Positions 482 through 9,924 of a stretch of 32,000 nucleotides of DNA are shown here, in pieces. Location of the stretch: positions 1,812,831 to 1,844,830 of the forward strand of contig NC_004460.2 in assembly GCF_000039765.1 (NCBI RefSeq), written 5' to 3'. A program made the position numbers and the translations under genes. The notes beneath the pieces are model-generated. The model was not told where the DNA came from. It saw nothing but the letters and a program-made list of their open reading frames with translations, and made no database searches. Each line of letters opens with the position of its first letter. The first letter of the stretch is position 1. This DNA is from Vibrio vulnificus CMCP6 (lineage in GTDB: Bacteria; Pseudomonadota; Gammaproteobacteria; Enterobacterales; Vibrionaceae).

Positions 482-1297
482 CTATGGACGCTCACCTGCC
501 GCTAGGCGACGTTCGATATCTGCAACCACTTCAGGGAAGTCAGCAATGGTGTCGATAAGGTAGTGCGGCGAGCTCTTGAGCAATTTTGCGCGTGCTTTTT
601 CACGAGCTTTCTCTAAGGTTGCTTCGTCTGCGGCTTGGTATTCTTCAAATGTCAGACCCGCTTCGTTACCAGAAAGCAGCAGACCCACCGTCCACATGCC
701 CGCATTGTGACCTTCAAAGATGCCTGGTGCTGAATCGTCCACTTTGACGCATGCTTTAACGTCGCTTACACCAAGCTCAATCACGTTTTTCAGTGCCATA
801 AACGGCGCAGGGCGACCGCCTTGTGGCAGATCGTCTGTCGCGACAACATAATCTGGTTGGTAGCCGTAATCCGCTGCCACTGGAATCAGTACGTCCATCA
901 CTTCACGAGGGTAACCAGAACAAGAACCGATCTTGATGCCTTTATCTTTTAGACCGTTCACAACTTCAATCGCATTGAGAATTGGCTCTGCGTGGTCAGC
1001 CACTTTTGCTTTTTGCAAAGGCATAAATGCTGCGTAGATAGCATCGATGTCTTCGCTGATCATTGAGCGACCAAACTTCTCATTCCAACGCTTATCAACA
1101 GCAGGAATACGACCCACAGCTTGGATGTGATCCCACTTACCAAGCCCCATTGGTTCGCGCGCTTCTTCAAGGTCGATTTCGAAATCAAAGCCTTGTTTGA
1201 ACGCTTCCACAAAGATGCTGGTTGGCGCAAAAGAGCCAAAATCGACGATAGTGCCAGCCCAGTCAAAGATCACTGCTTGAATTGGTGATTTGTTCAT
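482..1297 (-). CDS. phnX: Phosphonoacetaldehyde hydrolase (phosphonatase), HAD superfamily
   Basis: The N-terminus [22 protein letters not shown] carries the HAD motif I of phosphonatase (DxAGT). The gene is the last in a phnW-X-phnX arrangement. I placed the start at ATG 1297, which has AAGGA 7 nt upstream, rather than at the longer ORF-track start at 1339. Confidence 0.9.
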
Positions 1298-1386
1298 GTT
1301 CAATCCTTTTTCTTGCTTGCCAGAGCGCTGCCTACACATTGGAACCGCGCTCAGGATAAATTGGTTTTTGTTGAGGTCTATTGACC

Positions 1387-2766
1387 CTAAAAGTAGTTAA
1401 AGTCTTTGCACACTTTGGCGATCGCTTCTTCGAAGATCGCCAACGCTTCTGTCAGTTGTTCGCGAGTGATGATCAGCGGTGGGCTGAGTTGAATCACATT
1501 GCCTTGTGATACCTTGAAGCTCACGCCATTGTTGAGGCATTGGTACAACACAGCTTCCGCTTCGTCATACGCGCGTGCTTTGCTTTCGTGGTCAGTGACC
1601 AACTCAATGCCCCATAACATGCCGATGCCACGCACATCACCAATTACTGGGTATTTGGCTTTCATCTCTAGCAGCTTTTCACGCATGAACTGGCTGTCGA
1701 CTTTGACTTTATCTAGCAAGCCCTCTTGCTCAATGGCTTCCATGGTTGCCAGCGCGGCAGCACAACCGATAGGGCTTTTCTCATGAGTGTAATGACCCAT
1801 TGAGATTTGCTCGGCGGTGTTGTATTTGTCTTTGGTTACCATGGCTGCGATAGGCACTAAGCCTCCGCCCAAGCCTTTACCGATGCAGAGCATATCTGGC
1901 TCGATATCGTAGGCTTGGTAGGTAAACCATTCTCCGCTGCGACCCATGCCATTCGGGATGTCGTCGATGATCAACATGACATTGTGTTTGTCACAGATTT
2001 CTCGAATGCGTTTCCAGTAGGCTTTGCTCGGCACTTGTACGTCGGTATTACGAACTGCTTCTGCGATAAACGCGCCCACGCCGCCTTCTTTCTCAATCAC
2101 GTATTCGAGGTAATCGGCGTAATGTACGTCGCTGCCGTCCGCGACTGGGAAAGCACCACGGTAAGATACGGCTGGTGGGATGCGCTCAACACCTGCCATT
2201 AATGGTCCCATACCTTGGCGGAAACACGCTTCGCCGCCCACTGAGATGGCATCCAACGATGCGCCGTGGAAGGAATCCCACAGAGACACCACCTTGTAGT
2301 TGCCCGTGATGTGGCGCGCTAGTTTAAGTGCCATGCCAACCGCAGATGTGCCACCCGGAGCAAACAGCACGCGATTCAATTCGCCGCCACAGATTTGGGT
2401 GAGTTTTTCGGCACATTCAATCGCAGTTTCATTGGTAAAACGACGTGGTGAAAACGGCAGTTTGGCAATTTGCTCTTGCACACGGTTAATCACATGCGGA
2501 TGACCATAGCCTAGCTGATGGACGTTATTGCCATGAAAGTCCATGTACTTTTTGCCGGTGGCATCTTGGATGTAGATGCCTTCCGCTGCTTCCAAGGTAT
2601 CTAAGCAAGGCGTCGACATGGCTTGATGAAGAAAGACCTCCGAATCACGCTTCAATAATGCTTGCGTGCTTTCGTCGTCCATCGAGGCATTCCAAGCTTG
2701 GCGCGCCGGTGTCGTGTTGACATCGCCTTCACTACGAAAATGGGTCGGTTTGATGTTCTGAGTCAT
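1387..2766 (-). CDS. pbfA: Class-III aminotransferase-fold PLP enzyme located between phnW and phnX. Candidate PbfA-type (R)-1-hydroxy-2-aminoethylphosphonate ammonia-lyase.
   Basis: The 459-aa protein has class-III aminotransferase hallmarks: [14 protein letters not shown] (the DE-x-x-x-G-x-GR-x-G region) and the PLP-lysine context CIGKGLGGG. It sits 26 nt downstream of phnW and 89 nt upstream of phnX on the same strand. The functional assignment rests on gene context plus published PbfA knowledge, not on an alignment. Confidence 0.6.
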
Positions 2767-2792
2767 AGCGCTCTCTCAATCAGAAGGCTGCT

Positions 2793-3896
2793 TTAAGCAA
2801 CTTGCCAGTACATTGCTTTTTCAATCGCACCGATTAAGCGCTCGATATCTGCTGGGTAAACTTCACCAATGTTGCCGATACGGAAGCAATCTGCGTTCGA
2901 TACTTTACCCGGATAAATTACAAAACCTTGCTCTTTCAAACGCGTGTAGAACGCTTTGAATTGGTAATCACTGTGTGTTGGAGAGTAGAAAGAAGTGATG
3001 ATTGGCGAGTGAAGCTCATCATTCAGTAGCGGTTCGAAACCCAAAGAGCGCATACCTGCAACCAGTGTTTTCTGGTTAGTTTGGTAACGGTTGTGACGAG
3101 CTTCAATGCCGCCTTCTTGTTCGAGTTCTAACAATGCTTGGTAGAAAGCGCGAACCGTGTGCGTAGGAGACGTAAAACGCCATTTGCCGTGGTTCACTTC
3201 CATGCAGTGCCACTGGTCGTAAAGATCAAGGCTCAAAGAACGTGCCTGACCTTGGCACTTTTCGAGTTCCGTTTGCTTCGCAATCACAAAGCCAAAGCCC
3301 GGCACGCCTTGAATACATTTGTTTGCAGAGCTGATCATAAAATCGATGCCCAATTCTGCGATATCGATAGGAATGCCACCAAAGCTCGACATGGCATCGA
3401 GAATCACCACTTTACCGTGCGCTTTAGCGACAGAAGCAAAGGCCTCAATTGGATTAAGCATGCCAGTGGTTGTCTCACAGTGAACAATTGCCACGTGCGT
3501 GATAGCAGGATCCGATGCCAATGCAGTTTCCACCTCGTTCAAGTGTGGCTGTGATGTTTCGCCTGGGGAAACAACATGGCATGGAATATTTAAGTAATCA
3601 GCGATCTGAGCGATACGCGCACCGTAAGCACCGTTGTCGACTACCAACAACTTTCCCTCTTTGGCAATTGCGCTGCCAATCGTTGCTTCTACTGATGCGG
3701 TGCCGCTACCTTGCATGAGTACGCTGGTGTAGCCGTCTTGTTGAGTGGCTAACTTCACTAGCTTAGTGCGGATCACTTCTACGATGTCTTTGTTGTATTC
3801 ATCATCCCAAGTACACCAGTCTTTCAGCATGGCTTCGCGTACGGTTTCAGAAGTAGATAGAGGACCTGGAGTCAGTAGTAGGTATTCGTTTTTCAT
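2793..3896 (-). CDS. phnW: 2-aminoethylphosphonate:pyruvate aminotransferase (class-V aminotransferase)
   Basis: The protein shows [16 protein letters not shown], a PLP-lysine motif SSANKCIQG, and the length and architecture of PhnW. It lies upstream of phnX. The start is ambiguous between ATG 3896 and ATG 3908 (MEIEMKN...). Confidence 0.9.
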
Positions 3897-3922
3897 CTCG
3901 ATTTCCATCAGAATAATTTAAT

Positions 3923-3934
3923 TGGTCTACACCA
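3923..3934. promoter_or_regulatory. HutC/GntR-type operator candidate TGGTCTACACCA (putative PhnR box) just upstream of phnW
   Basis: This is a TGGT-N4-ACCA dyad 15-27 nt upstream of the phnW start. The same dyad type recurs at 4121 and 6344. It resembles HutC-subfamily operators with a GGTCTAGACC-like core. Confidence 0.45.
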
Positions 3935-4062
3935 GAAATTGAGTTCACTCTAACAAGGATGAAAAAGGGTCGTAAATAGCCATTCAGTGAATTTCATAAA
4001 ACTTTAATATCCAAAATTTCACCGATCAGTTGGTCGCCTATTTATCGATAATTTTCTCAAAA

Positions 4063-4091
4063 CTGCCATTTAATGGTCATGATTTCGTCAC
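4063..4091 (+). promoter_or_regulatory. Pho-box-like element: three heptamers phased at 11 bp (CTGCCAT ttaa TGGTCAT gatt TCGTCAC)
   Basis: It compares with the E. coli PhoB box consensus CTGTCAT-A(A/T)A(T/A)-CTGTCA(C/T). The GTCA/CCAT cores recur every 11 bp with A/T-rich 4-nt spacers. It lies 74-102 nt upstream of the phnS start. Confidence 0.4.
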
Positions 4092-4120
4092 AAAGGCTCA
4101 GTAGGGTGGTTATCGTCAAC

Positions 4121-4132
4121 TGGTACAGACCA
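4121..4132. promoter_or_regulatory. HutC/GntR-type operator candidate TGGTACAGACCA (putative PhnR box) upstream of phnS
   Basis: This is a TGGT-N4-ACCA dyad 33 nt upstream of the phnS ATG and 29 nt downstream of the Pho-box-like element. Confidence 0.45.
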
Positions 4133-4164
4133 AAATGAAAACTTAGCCAAATTAACTGGAGAAA

Positions 4165-5175
4165 ATGATGAAAAACCGTTTGATGAAAGGATCGCTGGCT
4201 GCGCTTGTCTCTCTGCTTGCTACCAATGCAATGGCTGCACAGGAAGTGACGGTTTACACCGCTTTCGAAACTGACATTCTTGCTAAATACAAGTCTGCGT
4301 TTGAGAAAGACAACCCAGATATCAAGATTAAGTGGGTTCGTGATTCAACAGGTATCATGACGGCGAAATTGCTGGCAGAAAAGAACAACCCTCAAGCGGA
4401 AGTGGTTTGGGGTCTTGCTGGCTCGTCAATGGCACTGCTTAAAGATGAAGGTCTTCTTAAGCCTTACACACCAAAAGGTTTGGAAGAGCTGCACGCGAAC
4501 CTAAACGACCCCCAATCAAACCAAGCTTGGTTTGGTAACGATGCGTTCTTTAACGCAGTTTGTTTCAACGAAGCGGTAGCGAAACAACTTAACCTACCGA
4601 AACCAACGTCTTGGGAAGACCTAACGAAGCCAGTTTACAAAGGTCACATTGCAATGCCTAACCCAGCTTCTTCAGGCACGGGTTACATGCAGGTGTCTGC
4701 TTGGCTACAAAACATGGGTGAAGATCAGGCATGGAACTACATGCGTGACCTAGACAAAAACATTGCACACTACACGCACTCGGGTTCTAAGCCATGTGTT
4801 CAAGCGGGTATGGGTGAAGTGGCTATCGGTATTTCGATGGCGAGCCGCGGCGCGAAGCTGAAAACACAAGGTGCACCACTTGCGGTTATCACACCTAAAG
4901 GCATTGGCTGGGAATCAGAAGCGGTTGGCCTAGTGAAAGAGTCGGATGCAGCGAAGCGCGTTGTCGACTGGTCAATCTCGAAAGCGGCGAACGAGCTTTA
5001 CGTGGAAATGTACCCAGTGGTGGGGCACAAAGATGTGAAAGCGACCGTGTCTAACTTCCCGAACGTTCAAGAAAATATGGCGAAGATGGACTTCGCGCAA
5101 ATGGGTAGCAAGCGTGCAGAAATTCTAGCGGCATGGTCTGAGAAGTTTGACGCGAAATCAGAGCCAAAGTCTTAA
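4165..5175 (+). CDS. phnS: 2-aminoethylphosphonate ABC transporter, periplasmic substrate-binding protein
   Basis: The protein has a signal peptide MMKNRLMKGSLAALVSLLATNAMA/AQE. At 336 aa it matches the Fe3+/AEP-type periplasmic binding-protein class. It is adjacent to the ABC ATPase, the permease and phnR. A TGGAG Shine-Dalgarno sequence precedes the tandem ATG ATG (4165/4168). Confidence 0.85.
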   Translation: MMKNRLMKGSLAALVSLLATNAMAAQEVTVYTAFETDILAKYKSAFEKDNPDIKIKWVRDSTGIMTAKLLAEKNNPQAEVVWGLAGSSMALLKDEGLLKPYTPKGLEELHANLNDPQSNQAWFGNDAFFNAVCFNEAVAKQLNLPKPTSWEDLTKPVYKGHIAMPNPASSGTGYMQVSAWLQNMGEDQAWNYMRDLDKNIAHYTHSGSKPCVQAGMGEVAIGISMASRGAKLKTQGAPLAVITPKGIGWESEAVGLVKESDAAKRVVDWSISKAANELYVEMYPVVGHKDVKATVSNFPNVQENMAKMDFAQMGSKRAEILAAWSEKFDAKSEPKS

Positions 5176-5201
5176 TTGAATTTGCTTTGAGTTGAATGCT
5201 G

Positions 5202-5231
5202 AAATCCACCTCGGTTGAGGTGGATTTTTTT
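5202..5231 (+). terminator. Rho-independent terminator of phnS
   Basis: AAATCCACCTC-ggtt-GAGGTGGATTT is followed by a T7 run. It starts 27 nt after the phnS stop. Confidence 0.85.
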
Positions 5232-6218
5232 GTCTGCGGCGCCAAGGCGAGGCTGTTTTTTTATCGTGTCGACGCTTTAGGTTCGATGCCATTCGTTTTA
5301 CGGGGGCTCGCGGCGGAATGGATTCCGGATAGCTCGCTCAGGCTCGTCCGGAATGACGTGCTTTTTGATTATGGAAGTGTCGTGCTTTAAGTGTCATTCC
5401 CGATAGTGACGAAGGAGCGTGATCGGGAAACCATGGTATTTGCTTGGTGTTGGGGTGAATTTTCATCTCGATAGAAATGGATTTTTTTGTCTTCGGCACC
5501 AAGGCGAGGCTGTTTTTATCGTGTCGACGCTTTAGGCTCGATGCCATTCGTTTTACGGGTGCTCGCGGCGGAATGGATTCCGGATAGCTCGCTCAGGCTC
5601 GTCCGGAATGACGTGCTTTTTGATTATGGAAGTGTCGCGCTTTAAGTGTCATTCCCGATAGTGACGAAGGAGCGTGGTCGGGAAACCATGGTATTTTCTG
5701 GCGCGAATGCGAAAGTTCACCACGATAGAAATGGATTGTTTGTTATAGGCACCAAGGCAAGGTTGTCTTTTATCGTTTCGACGCTTTAGGTTCGATGCCA
5801 TTCGTTTTGCGGGTGCTCGCGGCGGAATGGATTCCGGATAGCTCGCTCAGGCTCGTCCGGAATGACGAGTTCTTTGATAATGGAAGTGTCGCGCCTAAGT
5901 GTCATTCCCGATAGCGACGAAGGAGCGTGGTCGGGAAACCATGGCATTTGCTTGGTGTTGGGGCGAATTTTTCCCTCGATAGAAATAGATTTTTTTGTTT
6001 TCTGCGCCAAGGCGAGGCTGTTTTTTTATCGATTCGACGCTTTAGGTGCGATGTCATCCGTTTTACGAAGAACGCGGCGGAATGGATTCCAGATAGCTCG
6101 CTCAGGCTCGTCTGGAATGACGAGTTCTTTGATAATGGAAGTGTCGCGCCTAAGTGTCATTCCCGATAGCGACGAAGGAGCGTGATCGGGAAACCATGGT
6201 ATTTGCTTGGTGTTGGGG
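5221..6218. repeat. Tandem array of four copies of a ~255-bp structured non-coding unit: U1 5221-5477, U2 5478-5731, U3 5732-5985, U4 5986-6218 (truncated)
   Basis: The units align by eye. Each begins (T/A)GGATT(T/G)TTTGT...CCAAGGC(G/A)AGG. Each contains ATTCCGGA-N17-TCCGGAAT and TTCCCGAT-N17-(A/G)TCGGGAA hairpins. Each ends ...CGATAGAAA. The periods are 257, 254 and 254 bp. Confidence 0.95.
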
Positions 6219-6287
6219 CTTAAGTTGGCCATAGTATCTTTAACGATGAGTCTTGTTAGGTCGACGCGGTGATCTCACTTCATCTAT

Positions 6288-6327
6288 TTGTCATCTTCTG
6301 GCTATAAATTTGTCATTGGAACGTAAC
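6288..6327 (+). promoter_or_regulatory. Pho-box-like phased heptamers upstream of phnT (TTGTCAT cttc TGGCTAT aaat TTGTCAT tgga ACGTAAC)
   Basis: Two identical TTGTCAT heptamers (6/7 match to CTGTCAT) lie exactly 22 bp apart. Weaker heptamers sit on the intervening 11-bp phase. Confidence 0.35.
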
Positions 6328-6343
6328 ACTCTAAAACTAAATT

Positions 6344-6355
6344 TGGTATATACCA
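6344..6355. promoter_or_regulatory. Perfect palindrome TGGTATATACCA; HutC/GntR-type operator candidate (putative PhnR box) in front of phnT
   Basis: This is a perfect 12-bp dyad of the same TGGT-N4-ACCA type seen at 3923 and 4121. It ends 3 nt before the GGAG Shine-Dalgarno sequence of phnT. Confidence 0.5.
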
Positions 6356-6370
6356 TTTGGAGTGTGTGTT

Positions 6371-7477
6371 ATGTCAACTAACCAACCTTACCTAAATATT
6401 GAAAATGTTGTGAAGCAATTCGGTCAGTTCACGGCATTAAAGAATATCTCGCTGGCGATACAAAAAGGCGAATTCGTTTGTTTCTTGGGCCCTTCTGGCT
6501 GCGGTAAAACCACTTTATTACGAGCCATCGCTGGTTTAGACCTACCAACGTCTGGTGCGATTTTTCAAAACGGTCAAGAAACCACATTCCTACCACCAGA
6601 GAAGCGCGATTTTGGCATCGTATTCCAATCTTATGCGCTGTTTCCGAATCTAACTGTGCAAGAGAACATTGCGGTGGGTTTGAAGAACCAAGGCATGTCG
6701 ACCAAAGAAGCGTTAGAGACTGTGGAGATGTGGCTTGAGACCATTGGCCTGCCAACTTCTGGTGAGAAGTTCCCGAACCAGCTTTCCGGTGGGCAGCAGC
6801 AGCGTGTTGCTTTGGCCCGCGCGTTGGCGTTGTCTCCAGGTCTACTGTTACTCGATGAGCCTTTGTCGGCGCTGGATGCAAAAGTGCGCGTTCACTTGCG
6901 TAATGAAATTTGCAAGCTGCAACGCAAGCTCGGCATCACCACCATTATGGTTACACACGATCAGGACGAAGCCCTGTCGATGGCCGATCGCATCGTGGTG
7001 ATGAACCATGGGGTGATTGAGCAAGTCGGCACACCTCAAGAGATCTACCAACAACCAGCAACGCGCTTTGTCGCTGAGTTTGTCGGCAGCATGAACTTTA
7101 TTGAAACCTCCGTCGCAACGGATTCCCAAGTGCGCATTGCTGAGACCTTGATGCCAGCGCCAAGCCTGACCAATCGTAAGATCCAACGTGGCGACCGATT
7201 CGATCTGGCTGTGCGTCCTGAAAGCATCAAGTTCGTTGAAAACTACAACAACTCTTTACCGGTACGTGTTACCGCAACCGAGTTTCTGGGGGCGTTTTTC
7301 CGCATTGATTGTGTATTGCAAAACGACAGCGCAAGCCAAACCATCGTTGTGGATGTGCCTGTAGAAACAGTGCAGAAACTTACTATCAAGGCGGGCGATG
7401 TACGTTACATCCAGTTTGCGGAAGAAGGGTTACATGGTTACGCCGTGCCTTCGGTTGATAAAGCGCTAGCGGCGTAG
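6371..7477 (+). CDS. phnT: 2-aminoethylphosphonate ABC transporter, ATP-binding protein
   Basis: The protein carries Walker A GPSGCGKTT, the ABC signature LSGGQQQRV and Walker B LLLLDEP, plus a C-terminal regulatory/TOBE-like extension. I chose ATG 6371 as the start (GGAG 8 nt upstream) rather than GTG 6362. Confidence 0.9.
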   Translation: MSTNQPYLNIENVVKQFGQFTALKNISLAIQKGEFVCFLGPSGCGKTTLLRAIAGLDLPTSGAIFQNGQETTFLPPEKRDFGIVFQSYALFPNLTVQENIAVGLKNQGMSTKEALETVEMWLETIGLPTSGEKFPNQLSGGQQQRVALARALALSPGLLLLDEPLSALDAKVRVHLRNEICKLQRKLGITTIMVTHDQDEALSMADRIVVMNHGVIEQVGTPQEIYQQPATRFVAEFVGSMNFIETSVATDSQVRIAETLMPAPSLTNRKIQRGDRFDLAVRPESIKFVENYNNSLPVRVTATEFLGAFFRIDCVLQNDSASQTIVVDVPVETVQKLTIKAGDVRYIQFAEEGLHGYAVPSVDKALAA

Positions 7478-7485
7478 GTGTAAAC

Positions 7486-9210
7486 ATGGATGCAAAGATA
7501 ATGACAATGAATAGCCTCACCACACAAGACAAAGCGAAATCTTTACTCGGGCGCATCAGTCGTGACAACCTCGTGTTGTTTGGCTTGTTGGCCGGTTTAT
7601 CGGTATTGATGGTGCTGTTCATCTTAATGCCGCTTTGGGCAATGTTGACCAAAAGCGTACAAAACAGCGATGGTGAGTTTGTTGGGTTAGCCAACTTTGT
7701 GACGTACTTTGCCTCTTCAAGCTTGTGGGTTTCCGTCGGCAACACCTTTACTTTGGGCGTGATTGTGACCTCGGTAGTGGGTGTACTTGCGTTTGGTTAT
7801 GCCTACGCGCTGACTCGTTCATGTATGCCGTTCAAAGGTTTGTTTCAAATCCTAGGTACTGCGCCGATTCTCGCGCCTTCGTTGTTACCGGCGATCAGTT
7901 TGATCTTCCTTTTTGGTAATCAAGGCATTGCCAAAGAAATGCTGTTAGGAAACTCGGTTTACGGCGTGATTGGTATTTCGATGGGTTTGATCTTCTGGAC
8001 CTTCCCTCATGCATTGATGATTTTGACCACTTCGCTGCGCACTTCCGATGCCCGTTTGTATGAAGCCGCCCGCGCGCTGAAAACCTCACCAATCAAAACC
8101 TTCTTTATGGTGACGTTACCGGCGGCGAAATACGGTTTGATCAGTACCCTGATTGTTGTATTCACGTTGGTGATTACCGATTTTGGTGTACCTAAAGTAA
8201 TTGGTGGCAGCTACAACGTTCTGGCGACGGACATCTTCAAGCAAGTGGTGGGGCAACAAAACTTTGCTATGGGGGCGGTGACCAGCATTCTGTTGCTATT
8301 CCCTGCGGTCATGGCGTTTGGTGCAGACCGTTGGGTACAGAAAAAACAAAAGAGCTTATTCGACACGCGTTCAGTGCCTTATCAGCCAGAACCTAACAAA
8401 GCGCGCGACAGCATTTGTTTGGTTTACTGCAGCATCATTTCTATTGCAGTGTTGGCAGTACTTGGCATGGCGATGTATGGCTCGTTAGTTACTTTCTGGC
8501 CTTGGAACAAAGCGCTGACACTAAACAACTATAACTTTGCTGAAATGAGCACTTACGGTTGGAGTCCATTCTTTAACTCGCTAACGCTGGCAGGTTGGAC
8601 TGCGCTTATTGGTACAGCCATTATTTTCGTCGGTGCGTATTGCATTGAAAAAGGGCGTGCGTTTGGGCCAGTTCGTCAAGTGATGCAAATGCTCAGCGTG
8701 GTGCCAATGGCGGTTCCCGGTATGGTGCTTGGCTTGGGTTACATTTTTTATTTTAACGATGCGAACAATCCTTTGAACGTGCTTTATGGCACCATGGCAT
8801 TCTTGGTGATTAACACCGTAGTGCACTATTACACGGTCGGCCATATGACAGCATTAACGGCGCTCAAGCAACTGCCTTCAGAAATAGAAGCCACAGCGGC
8901 ATCGGTCAAGCTGCCACAGTATAAGCTCTTTTTTAAAGTGAGTTTGCCCGTGTGCTTTCCTGCGGTTTTGGATATTGCTAGCTACTTGTTTGTTAATGCA
9001 TTAACCACCACTTCTGCGGTAGTATTCCTCTATTCGACGGATACCATTCCCGCGTCAGTATCGATTCTCAATATGGACGATGCAGGCCAAACGGGCGCAG
9101 CGGCGGCAATGGCGGTGATGATCATGCTATCGGCCGCTATCGCAAAAATCGTGCAAATGATATTGGGCCAATGGTTAGACAGTCGTACTCAAGCTTGGCG
9201 GAAAAGATAA
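7486..9210 (+). CDS. phnU: 2-aminoethylphosphonate ABC transporter permease, fused two-domain (PhnU/PhnV-type)
   Basis: This 574-aa polytopic membrane protein has two tandem ABC inner-membrane permease halves. It starts 8 nt after the phnT stop, with AGGTG upstream. Confidence 0.85.
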   Translation: MDAKIMTMNSLTTQDKAKSLLGRISRDNLVLFGLLAGLSVLMVLFILMPLWAMLTKSVQNSDGEFVGLANFVTYFASSSLWVSVGNTFTLGVIVTSVVGVLAFGYAYALTRSCMPFKGLFQILGTAPILAPSLLPAISLIFLFGNQGIAKEMLLGNSVYGVIGISMGLIFWTFPHALMILTTSLRTSDARLYEAARALKTSPIKTFFMVTLPAAKYGLISTLIVVFTLVITDFGVPKVIGGSYNVLATDIFKQVVGQQNFAMGAVTSILLLFPAVMAFGADRWVQKKQKSLFDTRSVPYQPEPNKARDSICLVYCSIISIAVLAVLGMAMYGSLVTFWPWNKALTLNNYNFAEMSTYGWSPFFNSLTLAGWTALIGTAIIFVGAYCIEKGRAFGPVRQVMQMLSVVPMAVPGMVLGLGYIFYFNDANNPLNVLYGTMAFLVINTVVHYYTVGHMTALTALKQLPSEIEATAASVKLPQYKLFFKVSLPVCFPAVLDIASYLFVNALTTTSAVVFLYSTDTIPASVSILNMDDAGQTGAAAAMAVMIMLSAAIAKIVQMILGQWLDSRTQAWRKR

Positions 9211-9219
9211 GGACACTTC

Positions 9220-9924
9220 GTGCAATACGTAAAAATTAAAGATTCGATTGTTGAACAGATTGAAGCAGGCATGTTAGCGCCAAGACAAAAGTTGCCAGCA
9301 GAACGCAAATTAGCTGAGTCGTTTGATACCACACGAGTTACGCTGCGCGAGGCGTTGTCTTTATTGGAAGCGGAAGGTCGAATCTATCGCGAAGATCGCC
9401 GAGGTTGGTTTATCTCGCCTTTACCGTTGCGTTACGACCCAACTCAAACACTGAATTTTACCAATATGGCGTTAGCGCAGAATCGAGTGCCGAAAACACA
9501 ACTGCTCGGCGCAAAAGCGATTTTAGCTAACAAAGTGGCGGCTCGCTTACTTAACCTTCAGCCATTTTCTGATGTGTTCCGTGTTGATCGTGTGCGTTAT
9601 CTTGAAGACCGCCCGGTGGTGTACGTAACAAATTACGTTCGCCCTGAGTTGTTTCCCAATCTGTTAGACCACGATTTATCGAACTCACTGACGGATATCT
9701 ATCGTGAGCACTTTGGGGTCAGCTATCAAAAAACGCGCTACCGCATTTCTACCAGTACCTTGCTCGGAGAGATGGCTCAGGCGCTACGCGCAACTTCTGG
9801 GACGCCAGCAATGGTGGTGGAGCGCATTAACTACAATCAGCATGGCGAGCTCATTGACTGCGATATTGAATATTGGCGTCATGATGCCATTTGTATCGAG
9901 TCTCTCGCAGAATTGGCAAGATGA
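9220..9924 (+). CDS. phnR: GntR-family (HutC subfamily) transcriptional regulator of the AEP locus
   Basis: The protein has an N-terminal winged helix (LPAERKLAESFDTTRVTLREALSLLEAEGRI) and a C-terminal UTRA-like effector domain. It uses a GTG start with AAGGA 6 nt upstream and is translationally adjacent to the permease gene. Confidence 0.85.
   Translation: MQYVKIKDSIVEQIEAGMLAPRQKLPAERKLAESFDTTRVTLREALSLLEAEGRIYREDRRGWFISPLPLRYDPTQTLNFTNMALAQNRVPKTQLLGAKAILANKVAARLLNLQPFSDVFRVDRVRYLEDRPVVYVTNYVRPELFPNLLDHDLSNSLTDIYREHFGVSYQKTRYRISTSTLLGEMAQALRATSGTPAMVVERINYNQHGELIDCDIEYWRHDAICIESLAELAR

Follow-up and report, generated by a model that had tools for sequence, protein, structure and literature searches.

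A locus-specific tandem array of REP-like hairpins and phnS terminator copies between phnS and phnT of Vibrio vulnificus CMCP6

The CGTC superfamily of repetitive extragenic palindromes (REPs) was described by Di Nocera et al. (2013; PMC3733652) as hairpins with an unpaired CGTC, TGTC or CCTC tag, an 8-9-bp stem that opens with an A-T and then a T-A pair, a loop of 4-5 nt (other lengths in few families) and a consensus tail CCA. These elements, which include dRS3 of Neisseria, are frequently found as dimers, in which facing tags are a rare arrangement; they have no dedicated transposase, and family membership is defined by tens to thousands of dispersed copies in a genome. Vibrio is not among the hosts listed (PMC3733652). 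In this study, we report the analysis of a tandem array of ~255-bp units that is located between the phosphonate transport genes phnS and phnT of Vibrio vulnificus CMCP6. The stretch of DNA analysed, hereafter the window, comprises 32,000 nucleotides (assembly GCF_000039765.1, contig NC_004460.2, positions 1,812,831 to 1,844,830 of the forward strand), and coordinates given without a record label refer to it.

The second closely related system is the NTS of Neisseria (CGTCATTCCCGCGMAVGCGGGAATCYRG), an oriented dRS3-containing motif; SsnA, a small GIY-YIG nuclease, binds and cuts it exclusively when the DNA is single-stranded (PMC11893778). In Neisseria, SsnA/NTS modulates transformation, and both the GTC upstream of the palindrome and the C directly after it are critical for cutting and binding. 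Such hairpins work at the DNA level; their RNA form is not bound by the enzyme. Related hairpins of many bacteria, the Ssn-related motifs (SRM), are likewise bound and cut as single-stranded DNA by small GIY-YIG Ssn nucleases, and ssn genes are typically flanked by their own motifs (PMC11893778).

The hairpins of the phnS-phnT array have in common with dRS3/NTS, and with the neisserial intergenic mosaic elements (NIMEs), the CGTC tag, the stem start ATTCC and the C after the palindrome, and they too are intergenic, oriented in both directions and repeated with segments of 50-250 bp between them (PMC11893778). In other Vibrio, hairpins of the family are found on both sides of a 95-aa GIY-YIG gene, as in Neisseria. 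In contrast, the Vibrio loop is conserved and 15-19 nt long, compared with 3-8 nt, and the published SRM pattern fails to match it; the V. vulnificus sequence covered holds 8 copies in one array, compared with hundreds dispersed in Neisseria, and V. vulnificus has no known ssn gene. We conclude, with a probability of roughly 0.7, that the array is a locus-specific minisatellite resembling NIMEs and bacterial interspersed mosaic elements (BIMEs), formed by tandem duplication of the 3' untranslated region (3'UTR) and terminator of phnS together with a CGTC/NTS-type hairpin pair, and in recombinational flux. The hairpin family is one already described (CGTC-tagged REPs; NTS/SRM targets of Ssn), and on this reading the 255-bp unit itself is neither a new RNA nor a mobile element.

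Organisation of the array and its alleles

A single tandem array was identified in the window by Tandem Repeats Finder (TRF), at 5207-6219 with no strand assigned, with a period of 255, 4.0 copies, 88% matches and 1% indels. In the TRF register the units are U1 5207-5463, U2 5464-5718, U3 5719-5972 and U4 5973-6226. The copies are arranged head-to-tail and are 88-94% identical over the whole 255-bp period, and the mean column identity of the four aligned units was 92%. The original prediction, which was made from the sequence alone and had named four tandem units of ~255 bp, was thus borne out; its unit starts (5221, 5478, 5732 and 5986) differ from those of TRF in register alone, but the homology begins earlier than they imply. 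Alignment of the flanks with the unit junctions revealed that it runs from the phnS stop codon at 5175 to ~6226. Since every unit ends in sequence that matches the 30 nt after the stop codon and the entire terminator hairpin, the repeated segment was taken to be 5175 to ~6226. Each unit comprises the 3'UTR and terminator of phnS in decayed form, followed by two hairpins in opposite orientation.

The original of the junction copies is the phnS 3'UTR and intrinsic terminator at 5176-5235 on the plus strand (stem-loop 5201-5228 followed by a T-run), for which a terminator scan gave a 12-pair stem and RNA folding gave -17.9 kcal/mol with a z-score of -5.2. Left-flank alignment and folds placed the decayed copies, also on the plus strand, at 5452-5492 (U1/U2 junction), 5707-5747 and 5961-6001; as had been predicted, the T-run is retained in these and the stem is lost. 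The prediction had also noticed a third, degenerate copy of the hairpin core near the unit end (CTCGATAGAAATGG). Such a copy is present; it derives, however, from the phnS terminator hairpin by decay (CCTCGGTTGAGG to CTCGATAGAAAT) and is not a member of the same hairpin family as the other two.

Those two, hairpins A and B, were found in 4/4 units by pattern matches and a palindrome scan, as the prediction had stated. Hairpin A is ATTCCGGA-N17-TCCGGAAT and occurs once in each unit, and its 44-nt pattern gave 4 matches in the window compared with 0 in 100 shuffles. Read from the tagged end on the minus strand it consists of CGTC, ATTCCGGA, a 17-nt loop, TCCGGAAT and CCA. Hairpin B is TTCCCGAT-N17-(A/G)TCGGGAA with GAAGGAG in its loop, and read from its tagged end on the plus strand it consists of TGTC, ATTCCCGA, a 19-nt loop, TCGGGAAA and CCA. 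The stem of A is paired at 8/8 positions and that of B (ATTCCCGA/TCGGGAAA) at 7/8, and the tags of the two hairpins face each other with 33 nt between them.

A covariance model of the hairpin family (R1) was used for scoring, and with it the eight hairpins of the four units alternate between the minus and the plus strand. The CGTC-tagged, REP/NTS-like hairpin A is located on the minus strand at 5317-5358 (unit 1), 5572-5613 (unit 2) and 5826-5867 (unit 3), each with 58.3 bits, and at 6081-6122 (unit 4) with 56.3 bits. In unit 4 the stem is changed on both sides and is still complementary (ATTCCAGA/TCTGGAAT). The TGTC-tagged hairpin B is located on the plus strand at 5392-5435 (unit 1, 42.9 bits, where the end TCGGGAA(A) is followed by CCA), 5647-5690 (unit 2, 41.7 bits), 5900-5943 (unit 3, 42.8 bits) and 6155-6198 (unit 4, 44.0 bits). 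Over 12 distinct unit variants, hairpin A was near-invariant: its pairing was 100%, and of its two changes one was compensatory and one gave G-U. In hairpin B, six cells were unpaired among the same variants, and this hairpin decays in some alleles.

Copies of the unit were sought via a spurious open reading frame (ORF) annotated in the array and its homologues among 5.8 billion proteins. In this look-up the unit was found at phnS-phnT alone and in V. vulnificus alone, where the phnS-phnT gap measures 356, 942, 1013, 1181 or 1195 bp. Several strains with the 1195-bp gap have a spacer identical to that of the window, with four copies. The 942-bp allele has three copies, the 1181-bp allele four diverged copies and the 1013-bp allele ~3.7 copies that are internally rearranged. 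The 356-bp gap was found in one strain (L138) and holds a collapsed single unit, in which the 5' part of unit 1 of the L139 array is joined to the 3' part of unit 4 of that array at an 11-nt junction, ATTCYSGATAG, a similarity that hairpin A and hairpin B have in common in their 5' arms. Because it is composed of L139-type first and last unit parts, the L138 allele represents collapse of the array and not an ancestral single copy.

Exchange between copies is indicated because the alleles carry common units at different positions. The mosaic pattern described in the prediction was likewise recovered in the unit alignments: U1 and U2 differ from U3 and U4 between the hairpins, including a 1-nt indel, and U2 has a replaced tail. 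The drift in copy number, from a collapsed single unit to three or four, together with the mosaic units, is as expected of a minisatellite shaped by unequal recombination. The comparison of the spacer across strains, which had been proposed as a check, thus showed that copy number varies at this locus within V. vulnificus. In its head-to-tail copies (88-94%), polymorphic copy number and mosaics fitting unequal crossing-over and conversion, the array is similar to the long-unit variable-number tandem repeats, or minisatellites, of other bacteria; it differs from them in that its unit has recognisable REP-like hairpins and a duplicated terminator.

One interpretation offered beforehand was a family related to REPs or to miniature inverted-repeat transposable elements (MITEs), amplified by unequal crossing-over. 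The REP-like palindromes, the copy number of 1-4 and the mosaics agree with this, but in the look-up above the 255-bp unit is not dispersed. It had further been allowed that the unit might match a catalogued family, making it real and not novel; this holds for the ~42-nt hairpins, which belong to a described family, and not for the 255-bp unit, which is locus-specific. A BLAST search of the array against the plasmid collection matched the two hairpins alone, on a V. campbellii chromosome II filed as a plasmid, and a literature search on the array locus tags and on Vibrio REP elements and REP-associated tyrosine transposases (RAYTs) returned nothing on the array. Several 'plasmids' of 1.7-2.1 Mb in that collection are evidently Vibrio second chromosomes.

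The array is identical in several independent assemblies, including the complete chromosome CP012740.1, and is therefore not an assembly artefact. In line with the earlier description, it carries no transposase and is not a CRISPR array, because unique spacers are absent and the whole period is repeated. It is also non-coding as described; a coding reading was rejected, the ORFs in the array being short, unlike between units and called inconsistently by annotators. A 12-14-codon ORF (MVFAWCWGEF...) at 5431-5475, with its equivalents, extends from CCATGG just 3' of hairpin B to the junction GATAG. It is alike in 3/4 units of the window, but other strains have some units in which the ATG is missing, and the ORF was judged to be due to chance.

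Long-loop CGTC hairpins in Vibrio

Compared with the CGTC REPs (PMC3733652), hairpins A and B have the same tag in all four units (CGTC on the minus strand for A, TGTC on the plus strand for B), the same 8-bp stem, paired at 8/8 (A) and 7/8 (B) positions, the same pairing in opposite orientation and no adjacent transposase. The CCA tail is likewise present, as CCATT after A and CCATG after B, whereas other Vibrio members have CTA or CTC. They differ in their facing tags and in the loop, which is 17 nt in A, 19 nt in B and 15-19 nt in other Vibrio members, compared with 4-5 nt. The sequence of the Vibrio loop is conserved, that of the A type being GAGCCnnRGCGA. When the tag and loop only were searched for, 8 distinct Vibrio sequences were recovered. 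They represent 5 different stems and each forms 7-8/8 Watson-Crick pairs, so that covariation in the stem accompanies a conserved loop. A larger set of Vibrio hairpins was selected for being palindromic, and its pairing statistics are thus partly circular.

The same tag, outer stem and tail were found in more than 100 other genomes, mostly of Alphaproteobacteria among the matches listed, using a very loose pattern (GTCATTCCNGA-N14-22-TCNGGAA) that yields no copy count for Vibrio. When the exact pattern of hairpin A was used, 3 metagenome contigs were obtained, all of them orthologues of one Harveyi-clade locus, and 0 viral contigs. The nearest relatives of hairpin A lie in one conserved intergenic cluster of the Harveyi clade, in which three hairpins (A, A' and B) are located between convergent genes (L011 2999-3250, equal to L145 28835-29093; also L154, L155 and L156). 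This cluster has been kept at its orthologous position among genomes of the Harveyi clade and metagenome contigs with 85-98% identity, which shows that hairpins of the family can be stable residents and not recently mobile. The family is sparse in the sampled replicons of V. campbellii, V. alfacsensis and THAF strains; with model R1, its density was 6 per 8 kb in one Vibrio metagenome-assembled genome (MAG) and 14-16 per 8 kb at ssn loci.

As in BIMEs and NIMEs, REP-type palindromes of alternating orientation are separated in the V. vulnificus array by short segments and repeated in tandem in an intergenic region. BIME and NIME modules recur at many loci, whereas the V. vulnificus unit was found at phnS-phnT alone and carries the terminator of that locus.

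A 95-aa single-domain GIY-YIG gene (Pfam E 2.9e-16) was identified between family hairpins in a Vibrio MAG (L045, 3055-3342, minus strand). A homologue, 72% identical, is annotated as common to several Vibrio species (L157-L164, e.g. AP018680.1; gene at 4001-4288 in L157). There the ssn-like gene sits between non-coding arrays of ~1.6 kb and ~0.9 kb, with 14-16 R1 matches per 8 kb, TRF periods of 187 and 298 bp, and additional 26-nt half-hairpin repeats. The order of the hairpins is that of V. vulnificus, with an A type on the minus strand, ~35-38 nt, and a B type on the plus strand. Tandem arrays of hairpin pairs are therefore recurrent in Vibrio, as the same pairs form arrays around an ssn-like gene. 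Hairpin A is 87% identical between the two kinds of array, and both are built of tandem units (187-298 bp around ssn). The ssn-flanking arrays, however, adjoin a nuclease gene and have the half-hairpin repeats, while the V. vulnificus unit carries the phnS terminator instead, and no homology was detected in the DNA that separates the hairpins: the match between the A-B spacer of V. vulnificus and that of the ssn-flanking arrays was not significant, 382/1000 shuffles scoring as well. The only solved structure near the Vibrio GIY-YIG protein was a weak SLX1 match. At these loci, the ssn-like gene is followed by a PhdYeFM/ParE toxin-antitoxin pair.

With regard to the positions critical for SsnA, hairpin A reads CGTC, palindrome, C, and hairpin B reads TGTC...GGGAAA, CC, which is imperfect. 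The published SRM pattern matches none of the long-loop Vibrio hairpins, including those around the ssn-like gene.

The phn locus in V. vulnificus and other species

At the locus, phnX, an aminotransferase gene and phnW lie in this order on the minus strand and are followed by phnS, the array, phnT, a permease gene and phnR. Upstream of the array, phnS (4165-5175, plus strand; Pfam SBP_bac_6/1/11) encodes the periplasmic 2-aminoethylphosphonate-binding protein, and a protein identical to the PhnS of the window is named 'putative 2-aminoethylphosphonate ABC transporter substrate-binding protein' (MULTISPECIES). Downstream, phnT (6362-7477, plus strand; Pfam ABC_tran and TOBE_2) encodes an ABC transporter ATPase identical to BAC96504.1 of V. 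vulnificus. The phnT control region (6288-6355, plus strand) lies outside the repeat and comprises Pho-box-like 11-bp repeats, TTGTCAT/TGGCTAT/TTGTCAT (6288-6316), and the palindrome TGGTATATACCA (6344-6355). It is conserved in every Vibrio examined (L001, L142, L143 and L148). The array thus occupies the interval between the phnS terminator and this control region.

A search of the window for the palindrome TGGT-N4-ACCA, a type typical of GntR-family operators, gave 4 sites compared with 0.47 expected. Those upstream of phnW (3923-3934), phnS (4121-4132) and phnT (6344-6355) are probably operators of PhnR (GntR family). Pho-box-like 11-bp direct repeats were also found upstream of phnS (4063-4091), as of phnT (6288-6316), and together with the predicted operators these imply dual PhoB/PhnR control of three promoters. 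Because a strong terminator follows phnS, and PhnR-type and Pho-box-like sites are located upstream of both genes, phnS and phnT are, on this sequence evidence, separate transcription units. A promoter scan also gave a putative sigma-70-like match on the minus strand of each unit (ATGACA-18-CATAAT, 10/12; 5368-5397, 5623-5652, 5877-5905 and 6132-6160), with a spacing of 17 or 18 across units and a -35 hexamer that coincides with the tag of hairpin B. Its 4 matches, which are copies of one another, compare with 2.4 +/- 1.6 in shuffles.

In E. coli and Salmonella, REP/BIME clusters of the GTAG type, which are RAYT-linked, are located inside one operon at malE-malF and at hisJ-hisQ and stabilise the upstream mRNA. 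The phnS-phnT array is similar in its position just after the binding-protein gene of an ABC importer, in its iterated inverted palindromes and in its strain-variable copy number. It differs in that it lies behind a strong terminator and phnT has its own control region.

The same spot is occupied by other DNA in other species. A GNAT gene was found in the phnS-phnT gap of 9/10 loci that encode an identical PhnS; these loci are V. parahaemolyticus sharing that protein, and the GNAT gene was therefore rejected as a polymorphism within V. vulnificus. The gap of THAF64 also holds a GNAT gene, that of THAF190c holds a long ORF, and HDW18 has a bare 137-bp spacer. In V. alfacsensis (plasmid, L143 5067-5400) a 330-bp insert contains one copy of a 302-bp unit, and in V. 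campbellii LJC015 (NZ_CP050465.1, L142 5106-5688) the same insert is present as a 302-bp x 1.9 tandem repeat. In both species the same 55 nt as in V. vulnificus are located directly 3' of phnS. The 302-bp unit has in common with that of V. vulnificus the phnS terminator and one A-type hairpin, which is 79% identical and has the covarying stem TTCTGAA/TTCAGAA, and no homology was found past these two. It also has inverted repeats of another kind, CCTCCCCTT..AAGGGGAGG and CTCCCCCTT..AAGGGGGAG. The original prediction had considered a repeat within a transporter locus unusual; it is less exceptional than that, as V. campbellii has an unrelated repeat with a family hairpin at the same position.

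The spacer also coincides with a step in divergence. Between V. vulnificus and V. parahaemolyticus, V. campbellii and V. alfacsensis (L001, L142 and L143), DNA identity is 92-94% at 482-5233, from phnX to the phnS terminator, and 81-88% to the right of the spacer at 6272-9882, from the phnT control region onwards. The PhnS protein is identical across species, yet phnS alleles differ by 4-6% within V. vulnificus. The pattern suggests exchange of the left block between species, with a breakpoint at the phnS-phnT spacer. The phnX-phnR cluster was additionally observed on records filed as plasmids (68-221 kb), L141 (V. parahaemolyticus, NZ_CP141289.1) and L143 (V. alfacsensis), and at least phnS of the cluster is present on NZ_AP024168.1 (V. 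alfacsensis, also filed as a plasmid). The PhnS proteins encoded on these records share at least 98% identity with PhnS of the V. vulnificus chromosome.

Origin of the array, alternative explanations and significance

The reading of the array as a minisatellite that grew from the phnS terminator and a hairpin pair can be put as a sequence of steps. The ancestral spacer would have consisted of the phnS 3'UTR and terminator, ~90 nt, and the oppositely oriented hairpin pair. This segment may then have been duplicated in tandem via unequal recombination or replication slippage, after which the internal terminator copies would have decayed. The unit carries REP-like hairpins and a duplicated terminator, which are therefore a plausible cause of instability; the hairpins may form by extrusion in single-stranded DNA and render the spacer prone to recombination. 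The array is probably without a dedicated function, and at most its hairpins and T-runs, lying behind the true terminator, may help to insulate the phnS and phnT units from each other or protect the 3' end of read-through RNA.

Several observations weigh against this reading. Model R1 found no hairpin of the family outside the array within the 32-kb window and none in three 50-kb samples of other Vibrio replicons, and four 50-kb samples of V. campbellii chromosome II hold just the three hairpins of the L011 cluster, two more being present at the phn locus (L142). As the family is sparse in the sampled sequence, the label 'REP' rests on form and not on copy number, and the loop of 17-19 nt is far longer than in the described CGTC REPs. 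The near-invariance of hairpin A, whose pairing is kept through two changes, could reflect selection rather than neutrality. The published SRM pattern, HGTCWYN(0-2)YYVSBRHN(0-5)WNVSBRGN(0-2)RNCYNB, found 0 sites in the window, also when its loop gap was allowed to reach 20 nt, and no ssn-like ORF was found in the window or in the other sampled Vibrio sequence.

The main alternative is that the array is an active target cluster of a V. vulnificus Ssn-type nuclease, the eight hairpins being cut when single-stranded, during natural transformation or replication, and so modulating the integration of foreign DNA at the phn locus and driving the duplications. We consider this unlikely. Vibrio species are naturally competent, the tag is of NTS type with a C after the palindrome, family hairpins flank ssn-like genes in tandem arrays in other Vibrio, and the array lies at the divergence step (92-94% left, 81-88% right), with the 4-6% difference between phnS alleles of V. 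vulnificus, as if the spacer were a recombination boundary. However, no ssn-like gene was found in the V. vulnificus sequence covered, V. vulnificus is not represented among the named homologues in the 120 best matches to the Ssn-like protein, and the published SRM pattern fails; hairpin B, with its TGTC tag and imperfect end, decays in some alleles, and the divergence step may instead reflect differing constraints on the flanking genes. Very unlikely, in our view, is a structured RNA, either a 3' stabiliser or attenuator on phnS read-through transcripts or a small RNA from the promoter-like site, ATGACA-17/18-CATAAT, on the minus strand of every unit. It is true that hairpin A folds at -20.1 kcal/mol as plus-strand RNA compared with -14.3 for the minus strand, and that the one-sided changes (A/G in B; in L139 unit 1, C/U in A) allow G-U pairing when the plus strand is read but not when the minus strand is. 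The Rfam search and the covariation analysis that had been proposed as checks nevertheless came out negative. Rfam gave no match, the best being mir-754 with 17.6 bits (gathering 84) and RNAIII with 11.5 bits (gathering 47), both at E >5; the whole 254-nt unit folds no better than shuffles (z -0.3 and -0.4 on the two strands); and covariation within the array, over the 12 distinct units, was not above that of shuffles. A complement CACCAAG...CTTGGTG does exist and had been suggested as a possible closure of each unit into one folded domain, but in the 12 variants 8/80 cells of this helix are unpaired, no clean compensatory change is seen and the helix is missing in units with the alternative tail, so that the closed whole-unit domain was rejected. 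Hairpin B likewise gathers uncompensated changes. A strong terminator upstream of the array, loss of nearly all of it in L138, unrelated DNA at this spot in other species, and the DNA-based action of Ssn-type hairpins, whose enzyme ignores the RNA form (PMC11893778), all speak against an RNA, and the idea of a structured transcript read through from phnS is not upheld.

Insertion of the 255-bp unit as a non-autonomous mobile element (a MITE, or a REPIN built of paired REPs), followed by multiplication through transposition, appears highly improbable. The unit does hold inverted REP-like hairpins, and hairpins of the family occur at unrelated loci in other Vibrio; but the unit was found at a single locus, its copies are strictly head-to-tail, terminal inverted repeats and target duplications are lacking, it ends inside the phnS 3'UTR and includes that gene's own terminator, and its resemblance to the V. 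campbellii/V. alfacsensis insert is limited to the hairpin. There is scarcely any case for the array as a decoy or architectural binding array for PhoB, PhnR or a nucleoid protein. The TGTCAT/CGTCAT tags do resemble a Pho-box half-site and the array is located just upstream of the Pho-box-like repeats of phnT, yet there is no second half-site at 11-bp spacing, TGGT-N4-ACCA is absent from the array, and strains and species that retain the control region have a variable array or none. A broader proposal, which we regard as decidedly doubtful, is that the long-loop CGTC hairpins of Vibrio are a distinct functional class of Ssn targets missed by motif searches, that their pairs actively seed tandem duplication of neighbouring DNA, and that the phnS-phnT array is a live site of recombination and transformation control. 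If true, it would account for the variable copy number as well as for the sharp shift in between-species divergence across the spacer.

The minisatellite reading explains the array by known biology, as a local tandem duplication of a terminator and REP-like hairpins, and leaves the understanding of phosphonate uptake unchanged. For V. vulnificus, the array provides a ready variable-number locus for typing, and the phnS-phnT spacer emerges as a hot spot of insertion and duplication and as the boundary of blocks that differ in between-species divergence. For the hairpin family, this study defines a Vibrio variant of the CGTC/NTS type with a conserved 15-19-nt loop, which is undetected by the SRM pattern and in some Vibrio surrounds an ssn-like gene. 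The variant is relevant to the range of targets that Ssn enzymes accept; these enzymes are in development as single-strand DNA tools.

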